19,557 bases of DNA. Origin: a virus (taxonomy: Duplodnaviria; Heunggongvirae; Uroviricota; Caudoviricetes). Below are positions 502-10,223 of this stretch, piece by piece. A program made the translations under genes and the position numbers. The DNA is taken from the IMG/VR virus record IMGVR_UViG_2529293142_000017, positions 1-19,557 of that record; one strand, 5' to 3'. The stretch's first letter is position 1. Every line of letters starts with the position of its first letter. The notes beneath the pieces are model-generated. The model was not told where the DNA came from. It did no database searches and saw nothing but the letters and a program-made list of their open reading frames with translations.

Positions 502-1231
502 GACAGCAGTCCTCTGGCCTTAAGCTCTGCTCCCTGCTGGTCTATTTTGTCCTGCCACACCTTGCGCTGTGCCGGTGTGCCTGCCACCTCATAATCCATG
601 TGCGGGAGTGTTGCCGCTGACAGTCCGGTCAGCCGGAGAACCGGCTCACCGGTGAGGCTGATTTGCATCTGTTTTATTTTCTGTTCCAGCGATGATTTCA
701 CCTGCTGCATGACAGCCTTTTCCGGTGCGACGTAGCCCTGATGGCCGGTGGTGTTGGCGAGCGGATTTTCCTGTACCAGAATGCTCAGATGCATTGCCCG
801 GACAAGCGCCTCACAGGTTTCATTCAGGGCGTGTTCCAGCTCATGCTCTGCATACAGACTCAGCAGGTGATGATGTGCCTTCCGGTAGGCGGTGGCCGTG
901 CTGTCACACGCCCCTTTCAGGCGTTCACGTTCAAAATTCAGCACCACGGCCAGATTGTCATATTCCTGTACCAGCTCCCGGCGTGCCACGCGCTCAATGT
1001 GGCGCTGTTTCAGCTCGTCGCTCAGGACACCACCGGCTGCACGAAAGGCTGTGCGCCAGTCATCAGCGTCATTTCCGTCGGCCTGCGCCAGCGCATTTTT
1101 TCCTGCTCTGCCCGTTCAATGGCCTTGACGGTCTCATCCATCAGTCGGGCGTTCTCAAGGTGGGCGGCTCTGGCCTTTTCCAGTTGTGCCAGTGCGGGTT
1201 GCAGATATTCAGGGATGGTGTTGTCAGACAT
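498..1231 (-). pseudogene. sid: sid-like capsid size-determination gene interrupted by a single-base frameshift in a homopolymer
   Basis: N-terminal reading frame starts at ATG 1231 (MSDNTIPEYLQPALAQLEKARAAHLENARLMDET...) behind a GAGGAG RBS and stops at 1022. The C-terminal frame (498-989 in the ORF track, ...ARRELVQEYDNLAVVLNFERERLKG...) stays open upstream to the same point. The two frames meet at a T6 run (1096-1101); one extra base would give one continuous 244-aa ORF. Confidence 0.8.
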
Positions 1232-1265
1232 TTTCCGGCTCCTCGTCACTTCAGGTTAAGAAAAT

Positions 1266-1321
1266 TGTGACGTACACCGGACAACAACACGACGCATTGC
1301 AGATGTGCCAGTCCTGACACA
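1266..1321 (-). promoter_or_regulatory. Candidate Delta/Ogr-responsive late promoter for sid, with two TGT-N12-ACA dyads
   Basis: TGT-N12-ACA at 1304-1321 and again at 1266-1283. With transcription leftward into sid, the dyad centres sit about 55 and 18 bp upstream of a start near 1257, ahead of the GAGGAG RBS. P2/P4 late promoters are known to carry this dyad near -55. Confidence 0.45.
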
Positions 1322-1400
1322 GGAGACTCATCCTCAGACCGGCAAGCCAGGAAAAGGTCGCAGGAAAAACCGGCTTACTGTTTGTTTTTTTATATTTTAC

Positions 1401-1513
1401 TGTTCACCTCTGTTCACCATAAGAAAAAAGATAAGTAATACAGTAAGTTAAAGGGTGAACAATCGCAGTAATGACTGTTCACCGTCTGTTCACCACTGTT
1501 CACCCGTTCATGG
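1401..1513. repeat. Cluster of 6-7 TGTTCACC iterons (alpha-protein-type origin iterons)
   Basis: TGTTCACC at 1401, 1411, 1477, 1487 and 1497, inverted GGTGAACA at 1454, degenerate GTTCATGG at 1506, followed by an AT-rich stretch (1515-1600). Same octamer as in the repeats downstream of alpha, about 4.8 kb away. Confidence 0.65.
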
Positions 1514-1662
1514 ACTTTTTGTGCTGTTTATTACTTTTTATTTTTATTAATTAACTGAAATAAATAAGAAAAAACAATTTGTATTTCACTATAATTTTTT
1601 CCAGCTCCTTCCAGAGCGTTTTAAAGCTATCTGGCGCTGATGTGCAAAAAACACACAGCCAT

Positions 1663-1680
1663 TGTAAGGCTGCCGGAACA
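1663..1680 (+). promoter_or_regulatory. Candidate rightward Delta/Ogr-type late promoter dyad upstream of vis
   Basis: TGT-N12-ACA (TGTAAGGCTGCCGGAACA) centred about 110 bp upstream of the vis start codon, divergent from the sid promoter dyads. Confidence 0.35.
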
Positions 1681-1782
1681 AATCCCCCCTGTTGCGTCTG
1701 CCAAAAATATTCACAAAATAAAGCGCTACCCGAAGCCGGACGGACTTATCCGGTGCTGTATGGACATTAACGAGGTAGCCCG

Positions 1783-2049
1783 ATGCAAGCTGTTTTTTCT
1801 TCCCCGTCTCCTGCCCCTGTGACGCCACTGATGCCGCTGCCGGACATCACGCAGGAGCGTTTTTTACGTCTGCCGGAAGTGATGCACCTGTGCGGCCTGT
1901 CACGCTCGACCATCTATGAACTCATCCGTAAGGGGGAATTTCCGCCGCAGGTGAGTCTTGGCGGTAAAAATGTGGCCTGGCTGCACTCTGAAATCACCGC
2001 ATGGATGGCCGGGCGCATTGCCGGACGCAAACGGGGGTACGACGCATGA
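1783..2049 (+). CDS. vis: AlpA/Vis-family helix-turn-helix regulator (88 aa)
   Basis: GAGG RBS 7 nt before ATG 1783. The [28 protein letters not shown] segment is the AlpA/Vis-type HTH. Size and position (first gene rightward of the divergent late promoters) match P4 vis. Confidence 0.8.
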
Positions 2050-2084
2050 TGATGCCCGCTCTGCAAAAAGTCCCTTTTTCTGGC

Positions 2085-2114
2085 TTGCCTTTTTCCGGCA
2101 TTTGCGGATATAGT
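2085..2114 (+). promoter_or_regulatory. Candidate sigma70 promoter (TTGCCT-N17/18-TATAGT) at the head of a structured leader
   Basis: Hexamers at 2085-2090 and 2108-2114, immediately followed by a perfect 7-bp hairpin (2121-2140). Position corresponds to the early leftward promoter and immunity region of P4-type elements. Confidence 0.3.
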
Positions 2115-2177
2115 TTTTCTGCTGCCGCAAAATCGGCAGCCGGGCGTGGAAACCCGAGCAATTCACAGGCGACATAT

Positions 2178-2199
2178 GACGCGCCATGCGTCTTTTTTT
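2178..2199 (+). terminator. Small intrinsic-terminator-like hairpin within the leader
   Basis: GACGC-GCCAT-GCGTC stem-loop followed by T7 (2193-2199), about 70 nt downstream of the candidate promoter. Confidence 0.35.
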
Positions 2200-2447
2200 G
2201 TGTCGCAATCAACGCCACAGAGCGCCAGATTATGGTGTGGTGTGTGGTCAGTCGTGCAGATGGCATTCCGTGCATCCTGCCCGCGTCCGCTCATTATGCC
2301 GCAGAGTCAATGGTAGCTCAGGCGGGGCAGCCTCCGGGCTGGCCGGTATCCTGTGAAGCCGGTATTTCCACCCCCGTCTGGGCTATCGCCATCGAGCGTG
2401 GAAACTCCGGCGATAGCGTTATTTGCTATTCACAGGAGGCTGCCATC

Positions 2448-2645
2448 ATGGCTACAACCCTTACCCCCTCACACCCTGAATTTGTCTTTGTGTTTGCGGC
2501 TGTCCGTCGCGCAGACCGTCATCCCCGTATCTGCATGCTTCGCACCGTCGCCGGTGATGAACGCAGTGCCCGCCGTTCCCTTGTCCGTGACTATGTGCTC
2601 TCCCTTGCTGCCCGTCTGCCGGTGGTGGAGGTGTCCCGTGCGTAA
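2448..2645 (+). CDS. Hypothetical small protein (65 aa)
   Basis: AGGAGG RBS (2434-2439) 8 nt before ATG 2448. Its stop overlaps the GTG start of the next gene, consistent with translational coupling. It is the 3' part of the long 2001-2645 open frame. Confidence 0.4.
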
Positions 2646-2925
2646 TAAAAAAGCCCCTCAGACCGTCTCAGCGCGTCATGACGCCCGTGAACACCTCAGC
2701 ATTGAGGCTTACCATAAGCTCAACCGCGCCAGCGCCGTATCCCAGTTTGTTGGGGGTGATTTGATTCACCGTGAACTCTCCGGCCTGCATCAGCTCTACA
2801 TTCCGCATATTTTCAGCTACCTGAATGAAGATATTGATTTTGTGCTGAATGAGCTGAAAGCCAAAGGCCTGTGCCGCGATTTTCTCGCCCAGCAGAAAGA
2901 CCGGGGAGACAGGACGCATGTTTGA
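2638..2925 (+). CDS. Hypothetical small protein (95 aa); candidate epsilon-like derepression protein by position and size only
   Basis: GGAGG RBS (2626-2630) 7 nt before GTG 2638. Lies in the same operon ahead of alpha. No motif recognised. Confidence 0.5.
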
Positions 2926-3331
2926 TTTTCCCCAGCCCGGTGAGATTTACCGTTCTGCCGGTTTTCCCGATGTGGCCGTGGTCGGCATTCTGGAAGACGG
3001 TATTCCGTGGGAAATGCCGTACCGCTGCCCGGACATTGTCTGGAACCCGTACCGCCGTAAATTCAGTATCCTTGTGCGTATCCTCGCTGACGGGCGCACC
3101 ACAGACATCCCGCTGGGGCGTTTTCTGCGGGAATTTACCTGTGACCGTCCTGACCTGTTTAAACGCAGCCCCGTAAACCGGCATGCGGTACTGAAAGAAA
3201 TGGCCGGAGACCCGGAATTACAGAAATGGCGGGAGAAATATCTGGATATTTACCCGCAGGCCCCCTGTTCCGGTCAGCCGGGCGGCACCGGTGGCGCGGG
3301 AATGGCGGGAAATTCCCCGCACGGAGCCTGA
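2918..3331 (+). CDS. Hypothetical protein (137 aa), P4-type left-operon gene
   Basis: GGGGAG RBS about 9 nt before ATG 2918. Start overlaps the previous stop. Codon usage matches the neighbouring GC-rich genes. Confidence 0.55.
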
Positions 3332-3510
3332 CCCGGAAATCACCCCGGATAACAGTTACCGCAATTATCTGTAAATTAAAAAACGACCCCCGAAAAATTA
3401 AATGTGCGTATTCGCGCAGGGATACGCACGTCTTCAGGAGACGCAGATATGCCTTATCAGTTAATGCAACCGGCACGGAATGCAGTCATCTGTCACAGGG
3501 AGGAAAACAA

Positions 3511-3831
3511 ATGAAAACACCCTTACCGCCCGTCTTACGCGCTGCCCTTTACCGTCGCGCTGTCGCCTGTGCCTGGCTGACCGTGTGCGAACGTCAGCAC
3601 CGCTACCCGCATCTCACCCTTGAGTCACTGGAGGCGGCCATCGCCGCTGAGCTGGAAGGCTTTTATCTGCGCCAGCACGGTGAGGAAAAAGGGCGTCAGA
3701 TAGCCTGTGCCCTGCTGGAAGATTTAATGGAATCCGGCCCCCTGAAGGCCGCGCCGTCGCTGTCCTTTCTCGGGCTGGTTGTGATGGATGAACTCTGTGC
3801 CCGTCACATAAAAGCGCCGGTACTGCACTGA
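3511..3831 (+). CDS. Hypothetical protein (106 aa) immediately upstream of alpha
   Basis: AGGGAGG RBS (3497-3503) 7 nt before ATG 3511. Stop lies 14 nt before the alpha start. It is the in-frame 3' part of the 3226-3831 ORF. Confidence 0.6.
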
Positions 3832-3845
3832 AGGAGAACAACACC

Positions 3846-6179
3846 ATGAAAATGAACGTAACCGCCACCGTCAGCCATGCACTCGGCCACTGGCCGCGTA
3901 TCCTCCCGGCGCTGGGGATTCAGGTGCTGAAGAACCGTCATCAGCCCTGTCCGGTCTGTGGCGGGAGTGACCGCTTCCGTTTGGATGACAGGGAGGGGCG
4001 CGGCACCTGGTACTGCAATCAGTGTGGTGCCGGTGACGGCCTGAAACTGGTTGAAAAGGTGTTTGGTGTTTCCCCGTCCGATGCGGCCGCAAAGGTGGCT
4101 GCCGTGACCGGCAGCCTGCCCCCGGCTGACCCGGCAGTGACGGCTGCCGCCGGTGCTGAAACAGACGCTGCCCGGAAGAACGCCGCCGCACTGGCACAAA
4201 CCCTGATGGCGAAAACCCGTCCCGGAACCGGTAACGCCTACCTGACCCGCAAGGGCTTTCCCGGCCGGGAATGCCGGATGCTGACCGGCACACACAGAGC
4301 CGGTGGCGTGAGCTGGCGTGCCGGTGACCTTGTGGTGCCACTGTATGACGACAGCGGCGAACTGGTTAACCTTCAGTTAATCAGTGCTGACGGCCGTAAG
4401 CGCACCCTGAAAGGCGGACAGGTCAGGGGCACCTGTCACACCCTTGAAGGACAGAATCAGGCCGGAAAACGTCTGTGGATAGCGGAGGGATACGCGACCG
4501 CACTTACCGTGCATCACCTGACCGGTGAAACGGTGGTGGTGGCGCTTTCTTCCGTGAATCTCCTTTCTCTGGCCAGCCTTGCCCGGCAGAAGCATCCGGC
4601 CTGTCAGATTGTCCTTGCTGCTGACCGTGACCTCAGCGGTGACGGCCAGAAAAAAGCCGCCGCAGCCGCAGATGCGTGTGAAGGTGTTGTTGCCCTGCCG
4701 CCGGTCTTCGGTGACTGGAATGATGCCTTCACGCAGTACGGCGGGGAAGCCACCCGTAAGGCCATTTATGATGCCATCCGGCCACCGGCTGAAAGCCCGT
4801 TCGACACCATGAGCGAAGCGGAGTTTTCCGCCATGAGTACCAGCGAAAAGGCCATGCGTATCTATGAGCATTACGGCGAGGCGCTCGCGGTCGATGCCAA
4901 CGGCCAGCTTCTGTCCCGCTATGAAAATGGTGTCTGGAAGGTGCTGCCGCCACAGGACTTTGCCCGGGATGTGGCCGGGCTGTTTCAGCGTCTGCGCGCG
5001 CCGTTCTCCTCCGGGAAGGTGGCCTCCGTGGTGGACACCCTGAAGCTGATTATTCCGCAGCAGGAAGCCCCCTCCCGCCGCCTGATTGGCTTTCGTAACG
5101 GCGTGCTCGACACGCAGAACGGCACGTTCCACCCGCACAGTCCGTCACACTGGATGCGCACCCTGTGTGATGTGGATTTCACCCCGCCAGTGGAAGGGGA
5201 AACGCTGGAAACCCACGCCCCCGCGTTCTGGCGCTGGCTTGACCGTGCCGCCGGTGGCCGTGCGGAAAAACGCGACGTGATTCTGGCCGCACTGTTTATG
5301 GTGCTGGCAAACCGCTACGACTGGCAGCTCTTTCTGGAGGTGACCGGTCCCGGCGGCAGCGGCAAAAGTATCATGGCCGAAATAGCCACCCTGCTGGCCG
5401 GGGAGGATAACGCCACATCGGCCACCATTGAGACGCTGGAATCCCCGCGTGAACGTGCCGCGTTAACTGGCTTCTCACTGATACGCCTGCCGGACCAGGA
5501 AAAATGGAGCGGCGACGGTGCCGGACTCAAGGCCATCACCGGCGGCGATGCGGTGTCCGTTGACCCGAAATACCGGGATGCGTACTCCACGCACATCCCG
5601 GCGGTGATTCTGGCCGTGAACAATAACCCGATGCGCTTCACCGACCGCAGCGGCGGCGTGTCACGCCGGCGGGTGATTATTCACTTCCCTGAACAGATAG
5701 CCCCGCAGGAGCGCGACCCGCAGCTTAAGGACAAAATCACCCGCGAGCTGGCGGTCATCGTGCGTCACCTGATGCAGAAATTCAGCGACCCGATGCTCGC
5801 CCGGTCACTGCTTCAGTCCCAGCAAAACTCAGACGAGGCGCTGAACATCAAACGGGATGCCGACCCGACGTTTGATTTTATCGGCTATCTGGAAACCCTG
5901 CCGCAGACCAGCGGCATGTATATGGGGAACGCCAGTATCATCCCGCGCAATTACCGTAAATACCTCTATCACGCCTATCTGGCCTACATGGAGGCAAACG
6001 GCTACCGGAATGTACTCAGTCTGAAAATGTTCGGGCTGGGGCTGCCGGTGATGCTGAAGGAATACGGACTGAATTACGAGAAGCGCCATACCAAACAGGG
6101 GATACAGACCAACCTGACGCTGAAAGAGGAAAGCTACGGCGACTGGCTGCCAAAATGTGACGACCCTGCAACAATCTGA
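3846..6179 (+). CDS. alpha: P4 alpha-type multifunctional replication protein (zinc-binding primase, TOPRIM, P-loop helicase, C-terminal origin-binding region)
   Basis: 777-aa ORF with AAGGAG RBS. N-terminal CPVCGG...CNQCG zinc motif, EGYATALTVH (TOPRIM-like) and Walker A VTGPGGSGKS. Same length as P4 alpha, and flanked downstream by iteron repeats. Confidence 0.95.
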   Translation: MKMNVTATVSHALGHWPRILPALGIQVLKNRHQPCPVCGGSDRFRLDDREGRGTWYCNQCGAGDGLKLVEKVFGVSPSDAAAKVAAVTGSLPPADPAVTAAAGAETDAARKNAAALAQTLMAKTRPGTGNAYLTRKGFPGRECRMLTGTHRAGGVSWRAGDLVVPLYDDSGELVNLQLISADGRKRTLKGGQVRGTCHTLEGQNQAGKRLWIAEGYATALTVHHLTGETVVVALSSVNLLSLASLARQKHPACQIVLAADRDLSGDGQKKAAAAADACEGVVALPPVFGDWNDAFTQYGGEATRKAIYDAIRPPAESPFDTMSEAEFSAMSTSEKAMRIYEHYGEALAVDANGQLLSRYENGVWKVLPPQDFARDVAGLFQRLRAPFSSGKVASVVDTLKLIIPQQEAPSRRLIGFRNGVLDTQNGTFHPHSPSHWMRTLCDVDFTPPVEGETLETHAPAFWRWLDRAAGGRAEKRDVILAALFMVLANRYDWQLFLEVTGPGGSGKSIMAEIATLLAGEDNATSATIETLESPRERAALTGFSLIRLPDQEKWSGDGAGLKAITGGDAVSVDPKYRDAYSTHIPAVILAVNNNPMRFTDRSGGVSRRRVIIHFPEQIAPQERDPQLKDKITRELAVIVRHLMQKFSDPMLARSLLQSQQNSDEALNIKRDADPTFDFIGYLETLPQTSGMYMGNASIIPRNYRKYLYHAYLAYMEANGYRNVLSLKMFGLGLPVMLKEYGLNYEKRHTKQGIQTNLTLKEESYGDWLPKCDDPATI

Positions 6180-7274: not shown

Positions 7275-7433
7275 ATGAAAAACATTGCAGCTATAAAACG
7301 TAATAACCGCAAGATTCACGCTCGTAAGTTCCTGTCTACGCCAGAAGGAAAAGCCTGGTTAGAGCGTAAACAGAGAGAGAACGAAGAAAGAAAACTCCTT
7401 AGTGAGTTGAAATGGCTTAGAGAGGATTTCTGA
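7275..7433 (+). CDS. Possible small basic protein (52 aa), not in the supplied ORF track
   Basis: AGAGG 7 nt before ATG 7275. Encodes MKNIAAIKRNNRKIHARKFLSTPEGKAWLERKQRENEERKLLSELKWLREDF, a charged helical peptide. Too short for compositional support. Confidence 0.3.
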   Translation: MKNIAAIKRNNRKIHARKFLSTPEGKAWLERKQRENEERKLLSELKWLREDF

Positions 7434-9695: not shown

Positions 9696-10223
9696 TTATT
9701 ATTAATAATAGCTTTATAAGCTCTCTGTAGCTCTCTGACGCAAGAAACAGCATTCAGGAAGGGAATCACCTTAGAAAAGTGTTCTTTGCGTCATAATGTG
9801 TTTTATGAAGGATTCAGAGGTGTTTCATAACAGGAATGTATAGAGGATACGTTAGGTAATTAAAAATAAGGGGTCTAAATGCTTCTCTAACAGCATTAAG
9901 CAGGGTAGGGAATGGAAACGCATTGCCTACATATATAATCTCACTACAGAGCTTTACAGAGCGTTTTATAAAGTGACTCTCTATCTTATATCTACCATCA
10001 CCTTTTTATATACCTAACAAATACCAAATAAGCCCCTTAAATAAGCCTCTGGCGAGCTAAACAGCCATTACATAAGGGAATGTATTGCTTTTATCAAAAC
10101 TTCGTTAGAACGCGTTTTAGAGCGTTTTAGACAATAATGAAGAATAGCACTACACAGAAGAGCACGAATTGCTAAGAAAAAATGTAAGTGCATGAAAAAG
10201 ATCAGATTTTTTGTGAAAAGGTA

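Follow-up and report, generated by a model that had tools for sequence, protein, structure and literature searches.

What occupies the interval between vis and the replication operon in the P4-like element studied here: a protein gene, a regulatory RNA, or both? The 19,557-nt stretch of viral DNA that we analyzed (the window) had been read, from its letters, as holding a P4-type immunity and leader region in this interval, with a processed small RNA that causes premature termination, and the long open frame across it had been set aside as no convincing protein gene. Our analysis indicates that the interval is very probably the RNA-based immunity, or lysogeny-maintenance, cassette of a P4 prophage, working as it does in P4. 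The RNA-based immunity switch of satellite phage P4 is well studied, and the locus itself is already known, textbook material.

The reading as a P4-type region was borne out by comparison with the P4 reference record X51522 (window coordinate = 10813 - X51522 coordinate). Window positions 1250-3900 are 97.1% identical to P4 over 2651 nt, and within 2040-2700 the alignment contains 12 differences in 661 nt (98% identity), making the two regions orthologous. The gene order is that of P4 (delta, sid, ori, vis, eta/kil, eps, orf151, orf106, alpha), and this synteny, with 97% identity to X51522, places the cassette between vis and the replication operon eps-orf151-orf106-alpha. Pfam matches in the neighbourhood include the AlpA and Derepression (epsilon) families. 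Three Rfam families scored above their curated gathering thresholds (E about 1e-10 to 1e-15), namely C4, isrK and c4-a1b1; a lenient Rfam search of 1200-3900 returned nothing past these three except a meaningless lncRNA match (E = 7.6). We also assembled a set of relatives comprising 114 distinct P4-like loci. The genes around and across the RNA region are the following.

1783-2049, plus strand: vis (P4 ORF88), an 88-aa ORF for an AlpA-family excisionase/regulator, upstream of the immunity region
2046-2645, plus strand: eta, 199 codons, spanning the whole RNA region, with kil nested in the same frame
2448-2645, plus strand: kil, 65 aa, Icd-like, an ORF conserved in all relatives and the predicted first gene translated from PLE transcripts

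As in P4, the promoter, leader hairpins, terminator, CI cloverleaf, downstream hairpin, kil and timm region follow one another with equal order and spacing, and one of the two recognition modules of the CI RNA, module 2, is identical (CCUGUGAA pairing with UUCACAGG). The differences are few. Six of the 12 changed positions are the same dinucleotide swap repeated at the three module-1 sites, giving UUUCCAC in the CI RNA where P4 has UUCUCAC, and GUGGAAA in the targets where P4 has GUGAGAA. In addition, leader hairpin 1 has 7 bp in the window and 6 bp in P4, and the terminator stem has a G-U where P4 pairs G-C. Outside the cassette, the sid frame is broken relative to P4 by a 1-nt deletion in a T run, possibly a homopolymer sequencing error, and immunity is unaffected by it.

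P4-like elements are often cryptic, and the broken sid frame could be taken to mean that the cassette belongs to a decaying P4 prophage and is no longer functional. We consider such an inactive relic unlikely. All cassette elements are intact, the recognition sites differ from P4 only by mutually compensating changes, and 75 complete E. coli genomes share the allele combination at ≥99% identity, whereas the sid frameshift may be a sequencing error and would in any case be without effect on immunity. With its broken sid frame the prophage shows some decay, and the element as a whole may fall short of a fully functional satellite.

Having placed the cassette, we examined its parts, beginning with the promoter and the leader.

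2085-2114, plus strand: PLE-type early promoter inside eta, with -35 TTGCCT (2085-2090), -10 TATAGT (2109-2114) and an 18-nt spacer
2121-2199, plus strand: isrK-like leader RNA (P4 seqA region), from the predicted transcript start to the intrinsic terminator
2121-2127/2134-2140, plus strand: leader hairpin 1, 7 bp, GCTGCCG-caaaat-CGGCAGC, with the nearly invariant loop motif GCAAAAUC
2141-2156, plus strand: leader hairpin 2, from the fold, whose loop displays upstream target module 1, GUGGAAA (2146-2152)
2162-2169, plus strand: upstream target module 2, UUCACAGG, complement of the hairpin II loop in CI
2178-2192 and 2193-2199, plus strand: leader intrinsic terminator, GACGCG-CCA-TGCGTC followed by T7, with five Watson-Crick pairs, one G-U and a 3-nt loop
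2200-2305, plus strand: variable spacer between the leader terminator and the CI RNA, translated as part of eta

TTGCCT-18-TATAGT was the sole sigma-70-like match in a scan of 1200-4000. Bare consensus matches are not above chance by comparison with shuffles (promoters, 1 found and 1.8 expected; terminators, 4 found and 3.7 expected). The promoter is identical in P4, where record X02534 marks a "consensus -10" at the same bases, and both hexamers are at least 90% conserved across the 114 relatives around a variable intervening spacer. PLE has been described as constitutive and placed inside eta (PMC10111431).

Downstream of it, Rfam isrK (RF01394) matched 2121-2198 end to end with 74.9 bits (gathering score 50), and c4-a1b1 (RF03163) matched 2108-2160 with 49.0 bits, a narrow margin over its threshold of 46.7. 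The layout of these models is present, with two 5' hairpins, a spacer and an intrinsic terminator, and the hairpins are backed by compensatory changes, which occur in 5 of the 7 pairs of hairpin 1. Upstream target module 2 has both-sided changes in 7 of 8 pairs and is paired in 98% of cells. The terminator corresponds to the 3' hairpin of the isrK model and is conserved, with one compensatory pair. When folded alone, the leader was no better than its shuffles (z = -1.0), and the seqC region likewise had an unremarkable energy (z about -1); we take both structures as real because of their covariation, not their thermodynamics. The spacer at 2200-2305 carries large indels in relatives, and these preserve the eta frame.

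Thus, the promoter, the 7-bp hairpin and the T7 hairpin of the original prediction are all where it had put them. The hairpin at 2178-2199 ends the isrK-like short transcript and is distinct from the main immunity terminator; it may correspond to the P4 terminator "t1" reported by Briani 2000.

The fit to isrK invites a comparison with Gifsy-1 of Salmonella. There, IsrK and the downstream STnc1160 RNA form a similar pair, a short terminated RNA and a read-through transcript with a C4-like RNA, and P4 seqA has been called a structural homologue of IsrK (PMC4825925); IsrK has elsewhere been said to correspond to seqA, and C4 to CI (PMC3632133). IsrK activates translation of orf45-anrP (PMC4825925), whereas the P4 leader is the target of a repressor RNA. 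Could the short leader RNA of the window also act in trans, opening the ribosome-binding site of the long transcript and switching the downstream gene on? The end-to-end isrK match and the activating mode shown for IsrK speak for this, yet the same study sets IsrK apart from P4, where CI causes termination (PMC4825925), and the 98% identity of the window is with P4 rather than with Gifsy-1. We therefore regard an IsrK-type activator as very unlikely. The short leader RNA may instead serve as a competitor for CI.

The core of a P4-type switch is the CI RNA, and this RNA, at about 2312-2390, was not among the hairpins originally listed as the immunity system; the region had been correctly chosen, and its central element had been missed.

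2306-2393, plus strand: CI RNA gene (Rfam C4 antisense RNA, RF01695), with a predicted mature RNA of about 2312-2390
2312-2327/2372-2387, plus strand: acceptor-like stem of CI, 16 bp, from the fold
2328-2341, plus strand: CI hairpin I, from the fold
2342-2363, plus strand: CI hairpin II, from the fold
2350-2357, plus strand: CI recognition module 2, CCUGUGAA, the 8-nt loop of hairpin II
2365-2371, plus strand: CI recognition module 1, UUUCCAC, an unpaired 7-nt bulge between hairpin II and the closing stem
2388-2391, plus strand: 3' tail of CI, G-C-C-A, with C2389 and C2390 unchanged in all 114 sequences
2382-2390/2409-2417, plus strand: downstream target hairpin (P4 seqC region), 9 bp, GCTATCGCC-N18-GGCGATAGC, with GUGGAAA (2398-2404) in its loop
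2429-2436, plus strand: downstream target module 2, UUCACAGG, overlapping the kil Shine-Dalgarno AGGAGG (2434-2439)

Rfam C4 matched over its full length (1-87) with 76.6 bits (gathering score 45; E = 1e-14). The segment 2306-2393 is also the most structured element of the region, with a minimum free energy of -49.3 kcal/mol and z = -5.0, and the independent minimum-free-energy fold gave the same cloverleaf as the Rfam model. Its stems are 100% paired among the relatives, with compensatory changes; the whole set of structures is 99.5% paired across the 114 relatives, and 15 pairs have changed on both sides. P4 CI is a substrate of RNase P (PMC5499578); it derives by processing from a transcript that is not translated, and its pairing partners are seqA and seqC (PMC4825925). 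To judge from its sequence, the predicted CI of the window has the features of an RNase P-type substrate, a 16-bp acceptor-like stem with G-C-C-A after it. A search of the window with ARAGORN gave neither tRNA nor tmRNA, which rules out a tRNA gene at the tRNA-like CI and means that the window contains no attachment-site tRNA.

The 9-bp hairpin at 2382-2417 had been predicted as an element of its own. It is present, 99% paired and with three compensatory pairs, but it proved to be the downstream target hairpin rather than a separate element: bases 2382-2387 of its left arm double as the 3' arm of the CI stem. Because the two share these bases, the CI stem and the downstream hairpin are mutually exclusive structures.

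Complementarity between a small RNA and flanking targets had been suggested as a check, and it turned out to be exact: both CI modules (7 nt and 8 nt) have perfect complements on both flanks, upstream and downstream, and these covary across the 114 loci. In the long-range pairings, 98.9% and 98.6% of cells were paired, with both-sided changes in 13 of 15 and 12 of 15 pairs. Their covariation scores over the 114 loci were 0.77 and 0.75, compared with 0.23 for shuffles and at most 0.17 for slid controls, in an alignment that had been chosen for exact module-1 complementarity, such that module 2 and the intramolecular helices are the only unbiased tests. The names seqA and seqC were assigned to these sites by their position relative to P4, the definitions of seqA, seqB and seqC coming from secondary citations. 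When we scanned genome contigs with a G+C-rich pattern, most hits were chance matches in actinomycete genomes, and about 10 were true loci, from Erwinia, Serratia, Aeromonas, Phytobacter and Kosakonia.

The dismissal of the long open frame did not hold. The frame at 2046-2645 is the conserved, known gene eta: PGAP annotates its CDS in a 99.8% identical E. coli locus, Pfam Phage_ASH matches it with E = 1e-26, and 105 of 114 relatives keep it open throughout the RNA region, compared with 2 and 2 for the other two frames. Its ATG at 2046 overlaps the vis stop codon TGA (2047-2049) in the tetranucleotide ATGA. Upstream, vis matches Pfam Phage_AlpA (E = 3.9e-21), corresponds to P4 ORF88 (X51522 8764-9030) and would be transcribed from the late promoter PLL. 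In P4, PLE lies inside eta, and Kil is a shortened form of Eta; translation of eta, which is coupled to the alpA homologue, keeps transcription from terminating (PMC10111431, summarising Forti 1999). The Shine-Dalgarno of kil, which downstream target module 2 overlaps, lies 8 nt before the ATG at 2448. The Rho-dependent terminator timm has been mapped to X51522 8365-8209 (PMC3177188). The homologous stretch of the window, 2448-2604, differs from it by one base, and by this homology the main immunity terminator would lie there, inside kil. We conclude that the long ORF is a genuine gene, eta with nested kil, whose translation is conditional and presumably confined to transcripts from the upstream late promoter. 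Since eta is real and overlaps the RNA elements, the region is both coding and RNA-regulatory.

Might coding, then, be the whole explanation, with a gene for Ash, Eta or what RefSeq calls "host cell division inhibitor Icd-like protein" and hairpins that are incidental in its mRNA? PGAP indeed gives one 199-aa CDS over 2046-2645 and no RNA feature, and the Phage_ASH match and the open frame in relatives agree with it. However, the Rfam covariance models match with E about 1e-14, and base pairs, including long-range ones, have been kept by double substitutions. These substitutions alter residues, exchanging Gly and Glu at both target sites and Ser and Leu in CI, and some relatives carry pairs of -1 and -2 indels that restore the frame yet scramble about 10 codons. 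Substitutions that preserve pairing and change residues, together with such indel pairs, argue for selection on RNA pairing and on openness of the frame, not on the peptide. Both layers also coexist in the published account of P4 (PMC10111431), so that coding is real but not the whole explanation, and a protein-only locus is highly improbable. In the RefSeq record that we examined, the promoter, the Rfam RNAs and the lysogeny switch are all without annotation; a gene stretch labelled "Icd-like protein" thus carries a promoter, two Rfam RNA families and a whole lysogeny switch.

Vis belongs to the AlpA family, the promoter is followed about 60 nt on by an intrinsic terminator, and AlpA of Pseudomonas aeruginosa is a precedent for an antiterminator. 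Even so, AlpA/Q-type antitermination, in which Vis would join RNA polymerase at the 2085-2114 promoter and let it bypass the terminator at 2178-2199, is likewise highly improbable, because the P4 CI/seqA system, whose RNA partners covary, fully explains the layout, and the literature credits read-through to eta translation and lost CI pairing and describes the promoter as constitutive (PMC10111431).

The preferred reading is therefore the P4-type immunity cassette. The P4 identity, Rfam matches, RNA structures, three-way complementarity and covariation, and conservation of the eta frame and promoter hexamers were seen directly in the window and its relatives. For the transcription start and ends, processing, termination, Rho dependence, translational coupling and activity in the present prophage, the following scheme draws on homology and the literature. 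Constitutive PLE (2085-2114), lying inside the eta frame, would transcribe an untranslated leader. Part of this transcription would end at the intrinsic terminator 2178-2199, producing the IsrK-like short RNA, and read-through transcripts would contain the tRNA-like cloverleaf at about 2312-2390, to be cut out as stable CI RNA; in P4 its 5' end is cut by RNase P, and the acceptor-like stem with the G-CCA tail is there in the window. CI would then pair with later PLE transcripts through its bulge UUUCCAC (2365-2371) and its hairpin II loop CCUGUGAA (2350-2357). Upstream, in the seqA region, the predicted targets are GUGGAAA (2146-2152) and UUCACAGG (2162-2169); downstream, in the seqC region, they are GUGGAAA (2398-2404) and UUCACAGG (2429-2436). 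The downstream pairing would cover the kil Shine-Dalgarno and leave kil untranslated, and Rho would terminate the naked RNA at timm (2448-2604), so that the replication operon (eps, orf151, orf106, alpha) would stay off. Once a helper phage has switched on the late promoter that precedes vis, ribosomes would be coupled from vis to eta at the ATGA (2046-2049) and would translate through the RNA region, blocking CI pairing and Rho; late transcription would thereby be insensitive to immunity.

A known system close to this switch outside P4 is like it in family and in processing: c4 of P1/P7 (immI: c4, icd, ant) belongs to the same Rfam family and clan (C4, CL00128), and it is an RNase P-processed antisense RNA (PMC5499578). 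At the DNA level, P1-like phages are only 69-73% identical to the window over about 180 nt. P1 c4 reportedly has two recognition elements with targets upstream and downstream (the work is that of Citron and Schuster 1990 and Biere et al. 1992), and its downstream target is said to overlap the ribosome-binding site of the Icd-like gene, repression consisting of blocked translation followed by termination. The object of control differs: in P1 and P7 it is the antirepressor gene ant, which belongs to a circuit of secondary immunity that is itself under a protein repressor, and in P4 it is the replication operon, with the RNA as the primary immunity factor.

Does the window share the immunity of P4? 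Judging by its recognition sites, its specificity has probably shifted: module 2 is shared, and module 1 is two bases off at all three sites. Predicted duplexes of the window CI were 4-7 kcal/mol weaker on P4 targets than on its own. Among the 114 distinct loci, both modules are hypervariable, covary three ways and reassort. The 7-nt bulge has at least 9 alleles and the 8-nt loop more than 20; nearly every allele is accompanied by corresponding changes in both targets. Reassortment of the two modules is free, the bulge allele of the window occurring with six different loop alleles. A module 2 pair that could stand in place of the CCUGUGAA/UUCACAGG of the window is, for example, CCGUUAGA/UCUAACGG. 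The module bases are also eta codons, so each switch of specificity alters the protein too, which suggests that for this part of eta only the act of translation matters.

We give an even chance to the idea that the two CI modules form a combinatorial address for immunity. The P4-like satellite retronphage phiR73 is a precedent for P4-like elements that differ in RNA immunity specificity; it is said, in the title of a report by Sabbattini et al., to be heteroimmune to P4. The region is present in 992 E. coli genomes, many of them with 2-4 copies. Satellites co-resident in one genome came as two pairs (L036/L077 and L195/L204), each differing in both modules, and two are too few to conclude from. 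We found no published population-level picture of the CI modules, and a large survey of P4-like elements does not mention the CI RNA (PMC8628076).

If each module combination is a separate immunity group, P4-like satellites would fall into many types, each heteroimmune to the others, that arise by compensatory change at three sites and by recombination. The window would then represent a type with one module in common with P4 and one that differs, partly or fully heteroimmune to P4. With a difference of two bases per site, this type is directly testable against P4. For any P4-like satellite, the matched three-site changes in the two modules would give a sequence read-out of the likely immunity type, which could predict which satellites coexist in a genome and which exclude each other.

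The region upstream of the replication genes is the classical immunity region of satellite phage P4. In a search of phage records, window 1250-3900 aligned over its full length with P4 (GenBank X51522, 6915-9564, minus strand) at 97.1% identity, and the genes follow the P4 order: delta, sid, ori repeats, ORF88 (vis), the old 'cI/ash' ORF, epsilon, ORF151, ORF106 and alpha. From vis onward, window positions equal 10813 minus the X51522 coordinate, and only 12 of 661 positions differ in 2040-2700, with no indels. Three Rfam families match above their curated thresholds, all on the plus strand. The seqA and CI RNA of the P4 literature, the upstream target region and the small repressor RNA, correspond to IsrK-like and C4-like RNAs, respectively (PMC3632133; PMC4825925). 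The original prediction of a P4-type immunity and leader region was therefore right in kind and place; because this locus is covered by Rfam and the literature, the finding itself is already known.

Features of the immunity region (window positions)
2108-2160, plus strand: c4-a1b1 (Rfam, 49.0 bits)
2121-2198, plus strand: isrK (Rfam, 74.9 bits)
2121-2140, plus strand: leader hairpin 1, within the Rfam isrK model
2141-2156, plus strand: leader hairpin 2, loop CGUGGAAA, within the Rfam isrK model
2146-2152: module 1 upstream target GUGGAAA, loop of leader hairpin 2
2162-2169: module 2 upstream target UUCACAGG
2178-2199, plus strand: leader terminator, after a spacer, within the Rfam isrK model
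2306-2393, plus strand: C4 antisense RNA (Rfam, 76.6 bits)
2312-2387, plus strand: CI closing stem, 16 bp, enclosing hairpins I and II (MFE fold, Rfam consensus)
2328-2341, plus strand: CI hairpin I (MFE fold)
2342-2363, plus strand: CI hairpin II (MFE fold)
2350-2357: module 2 in CI, hairpin-II loop CCUGUGAA
2364-2371, plus strand: CI unpaired stretch before the closing strand (MFE fold)
2365-2371: module 1 in CI, bulge UUUCCAC
2398-2404: module 1 downstream target GUGGAAA, loop of the 9-bp hairpin
2429-2436: module 2 downstream target UUCACAGG, overlapping the kil Shine-Dalgarno AGGAGG (2434-2439)

CI RNA is the element that the sequence-only reading had missed. Its fold (MFE -49.3 kcal/mol, z = -5.0) agrees with the Rfam consensus, and directly 3' of the stem lies G-C-C-A (2388-2391), both C residues of which are invariant in 114 sequences. 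RNase P is reported to process P4 CI RNA (PMC5499578), and the acceptor-stem-plus-CCA look of CI, with its predicted ends, fits that status. The perfect 9-bp hairpin noted earlier (2382-2390/2409-2417) is present, and in relatives it is 99% paired with three compensatory pairs. Six bases of its left arm also form the 3' end of the CI closing stem, so that in the primary transcript this hairpin and the CI fold compete, and the hairpin loop holds the downstream target.

The promoter-like TTGCCT-18-TATAGT (2085-2114), the 7-bp hairpin (2121-2127/2134-2140) and the short G+C-rich hairpin (2178-2192) followed by T7 (2193-2199) all stand in the sequence as first described, and a mechanical scan recovered the same promoter-like and terminator-like sites. 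That scan found no enrichment over shuffled sequence (one promoter-like match versus 1.8, four terminator-like matches versus 3.7), and the leader folded alone was no better than its own shuffles (z = -1.0). Such bare motifs prove nothing; homology and comparative evidence give them significance. The 1984 P4 record already marks this -10 hexamer (2109-2114), and the Rfam isrK model begins about 7 nt past it, at 2121. Conservation of the -35 TTGC and the -10 TAyAGT reaches at least 90% among 114 distinct relatives, with a variable spacer, the pattern that a real promoter should show. The leader terminator is presumably the t1 of P4, whose efficiency reportedly depends on CI and seqA (Briani et al. 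2000). As a side function, the short leader RNA may have an IsrK-style activating role. In leader hairpin 1, the loop together with its closing bases (2127-2134) forms a motif, GCAAAATC, that is nearly invariant in the 114 otherwise variable loci and sits on a co-varying stem.

CI exposes two modules, the 7-nt bulge (module 1) and the 8-nt loop of hairpin II (module 2), each exactly complementary to one site on each flank, as the suggested search for complementarity to flanking sites had anticipated. We collected relatives through the Vis protein (80 loci), through a pattern with the bulge left free in IMG/VR (120 loci) and through the same pattern on genomes (120 loci, about ten of them true family members, from Erwinia, Serratia, Aeromonas, Phytobacter and Kosakonia). 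In about 125 of 143 distinct pattern-matching contexts, an exact complement of the context's own bulge heptamer stands on each side, at a fixed distance; among the others, most have no complement on either side and are likely chance matches, and a few lack just the upstream complement. There are at least nine bulge alleles, including TTCTCAC (P4 type), TTCCTAC, TTTCCAC (window type), ACGCCAA and CTGCAAA, and more than 20 loop alleles, found in many combinations; 104 of 122 contexts hold, on both flanks, exact complements to 7-8 nt of the loop module. In an alignment of 114 distinct regions, where module 1 is paired by construction because its exact complementarity was the condition of entry, and where module 2 and the intramolecular helices were free of such selection, upstream target and CI were 98.9% paired (both partners changed in 13 of 15 pairs), CI and downstream target 98.6% (12 of 15), and the intramolecular helices 99.5% (15 compensatory pairs). 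Covariation scores were 0.77 (upstream) and 0.75 (downstream), versus 0.23 for shuffles and at most 0.17 for slid partners. One contig (L099, IMGVR_UViG_2660238469_000004) has the CI-core pattern twice on the same strand, at 7299-7323 and 9929-9952, 2.6 kb apart, and may carry two C4-like RNAs in one element.

The element could possibly be a dead relic, given that a T run in sid is 1 nt shorter than in P4. However, the immunity cassette is intact, the only recognition-site changes compensate each other, and 75 complete E. coli genomes carry this same sequence at no less than 99% identity. The sid gene (minus strand, about 498-1249) reads T6 at 1081-1101, versus T7 in the P4 homopolymer run, so that two ORFs, of 75 and 163 aa, replace its 244-aa frame; either sid is a pseudogene here or the missing T is a sequencing error in the homopolymer. 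Downstream of alpha, 6652-19557 matches a different integrative or phage-like block common to many E. coli genomes, with annotations of a tyrosine recombinase, another recombinase, a major capsid protein and a phage baseplate protein. Since this match begins at about 6652, the P4-like element ends between 6180 and 6652. ARAGORN found no tRNA genes in the window. An AlpA-type antitermination unit would agree with Vis belonging to the AlpA family and with the layout of promoter and terminator, but nothing specific supports such a unit, and the P4 system already accounts for that layout.

The main correction concerns the long 2001-2645 frame, which had been taken as unconvincing as a gene. A RefSeq CDS of 199 aa, equivalent to 2046-2645, lies in an E. 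coli locus 99.8% identical; its ATG overlaps the vis stop codon (ATGA), and Pfam Phage_ASH matches the translation of this gene, eta (E = 1e-26). In 105 of 114 distinct relatives no stop codon interrupts the kil-continuous frame anywhere in the RNA region, versus two relatives for each other frame, and this frame is maintained despite large in-frame indels in the 2200-2305 spacer. Some relatives carry a -1 deletion in CI and a -2 deletion about 30 nt on, which suggests selection for an open frame, not for the peptide; in L080, L083, L085 and similar rows of the 114-sequence alignment these fall just 5' of the bulge (equivalent 2364) and just past the CI 3' end (~2392), the frame being regained after about 30 nt. 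In P4, eta is a full ORF enclosing both the constitutive promoter and CI, and Kil is the C-terminal 65 residues of Eta, made on read-through; translation of full-length Eta requires the late promoter upstream, is coupled to the alpA homologue and prevents termination (PMC10111431, summarising Forti et al. 1999). The RNA evidence contradicts the view that the region is a coding gene and nothing else. RefSeq/PGAP places a single 'host cell division inhibitor Icd-like protein' CDS over the region (2046-2645; L084 2497-3096), with no ncRNA, promoter or terminator features annotated there, and Pfam PF10554 (Phage_ASH) in effect models the translated isrK-CI region (aa 37-161 of the 2001 frame).

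For P4 the mode of action is established, and from near-identity we infer the same here. The leader terminator would stop part of the transcripts from PLE, the early promoter inside eta, and CI would be cut from read-through RNA by processing. CI would then pair with new transcripts at both targets, the downstream pairing hiding the kil ribosome-binding site, and Rho would terminate the untranslated RNA at timm (X51522 8365-8209; PMC3177188), whose equivalent, 2448-2604, differs from P4 at one base. Replication genes would thus be kept silent, and late transcription from upstream of vis would escape immunity, since eta is then translated all the way across.

Of the 12 differences from P4, six amount to a single dinucleotide swap repeated at the three module-1 sites: P4 has GUGAGAA/UUCUCAC/GUGAGAA and the window GUGGAAA/UUUCCAC/GUGGAAA, whereas module 2 is identical. 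At the sequence level, the window thus carries a specificity allele different from that of P4. The swap alters eta codons (GGA/GAG, Gly/Glu, at both targets; TCC/CTC, Ser/Leu, in CI), so RNA pairing and the open frame seem to be under selection more than this stretch of Eta peptide. Simple duplex prediction gives window CI -28.4 (upstream) and -32.1 (downstream) kcal/mol on its own targets, versus -23.7 and -25.6 on P4 targets; for module 1 alone the values are -8.9 versus -4.3. Two-module, three-site covariation across the family is striking, but it extends an established principle and does not amount to a system of a new kind; we found no population-scale account of it in the literature, and a large P4-like survey does not mention CI RNA.

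The c4 RNAs of P1 and P7 are a precedent for heteroimmunity, and phiR73 and P4 are reportedly another. These precedents suggest that the window element and P4 may be heteroimmune through the module-1 difference. A natural hybrid (L025, IMGVR_UViG_2698536560_000011; equivalent of 2141-2412) has a P4-type upstream target, GTGAGAA, with window-type CI and downstream target (TTTCCAC/GTGGAAA), so its upstream site is mismatched to its own CI; a recombination breakpoint would have to lie between the equivalents of 2152 and 2365. The sample holds only two same-genome pairs, L036/L077 (IMG genome 2531839450) and L195/L204 (IMG genome 2874840943), too few for a test; in both, the partners differ in both recognition modules, as would be expected if identical types exclude each other.
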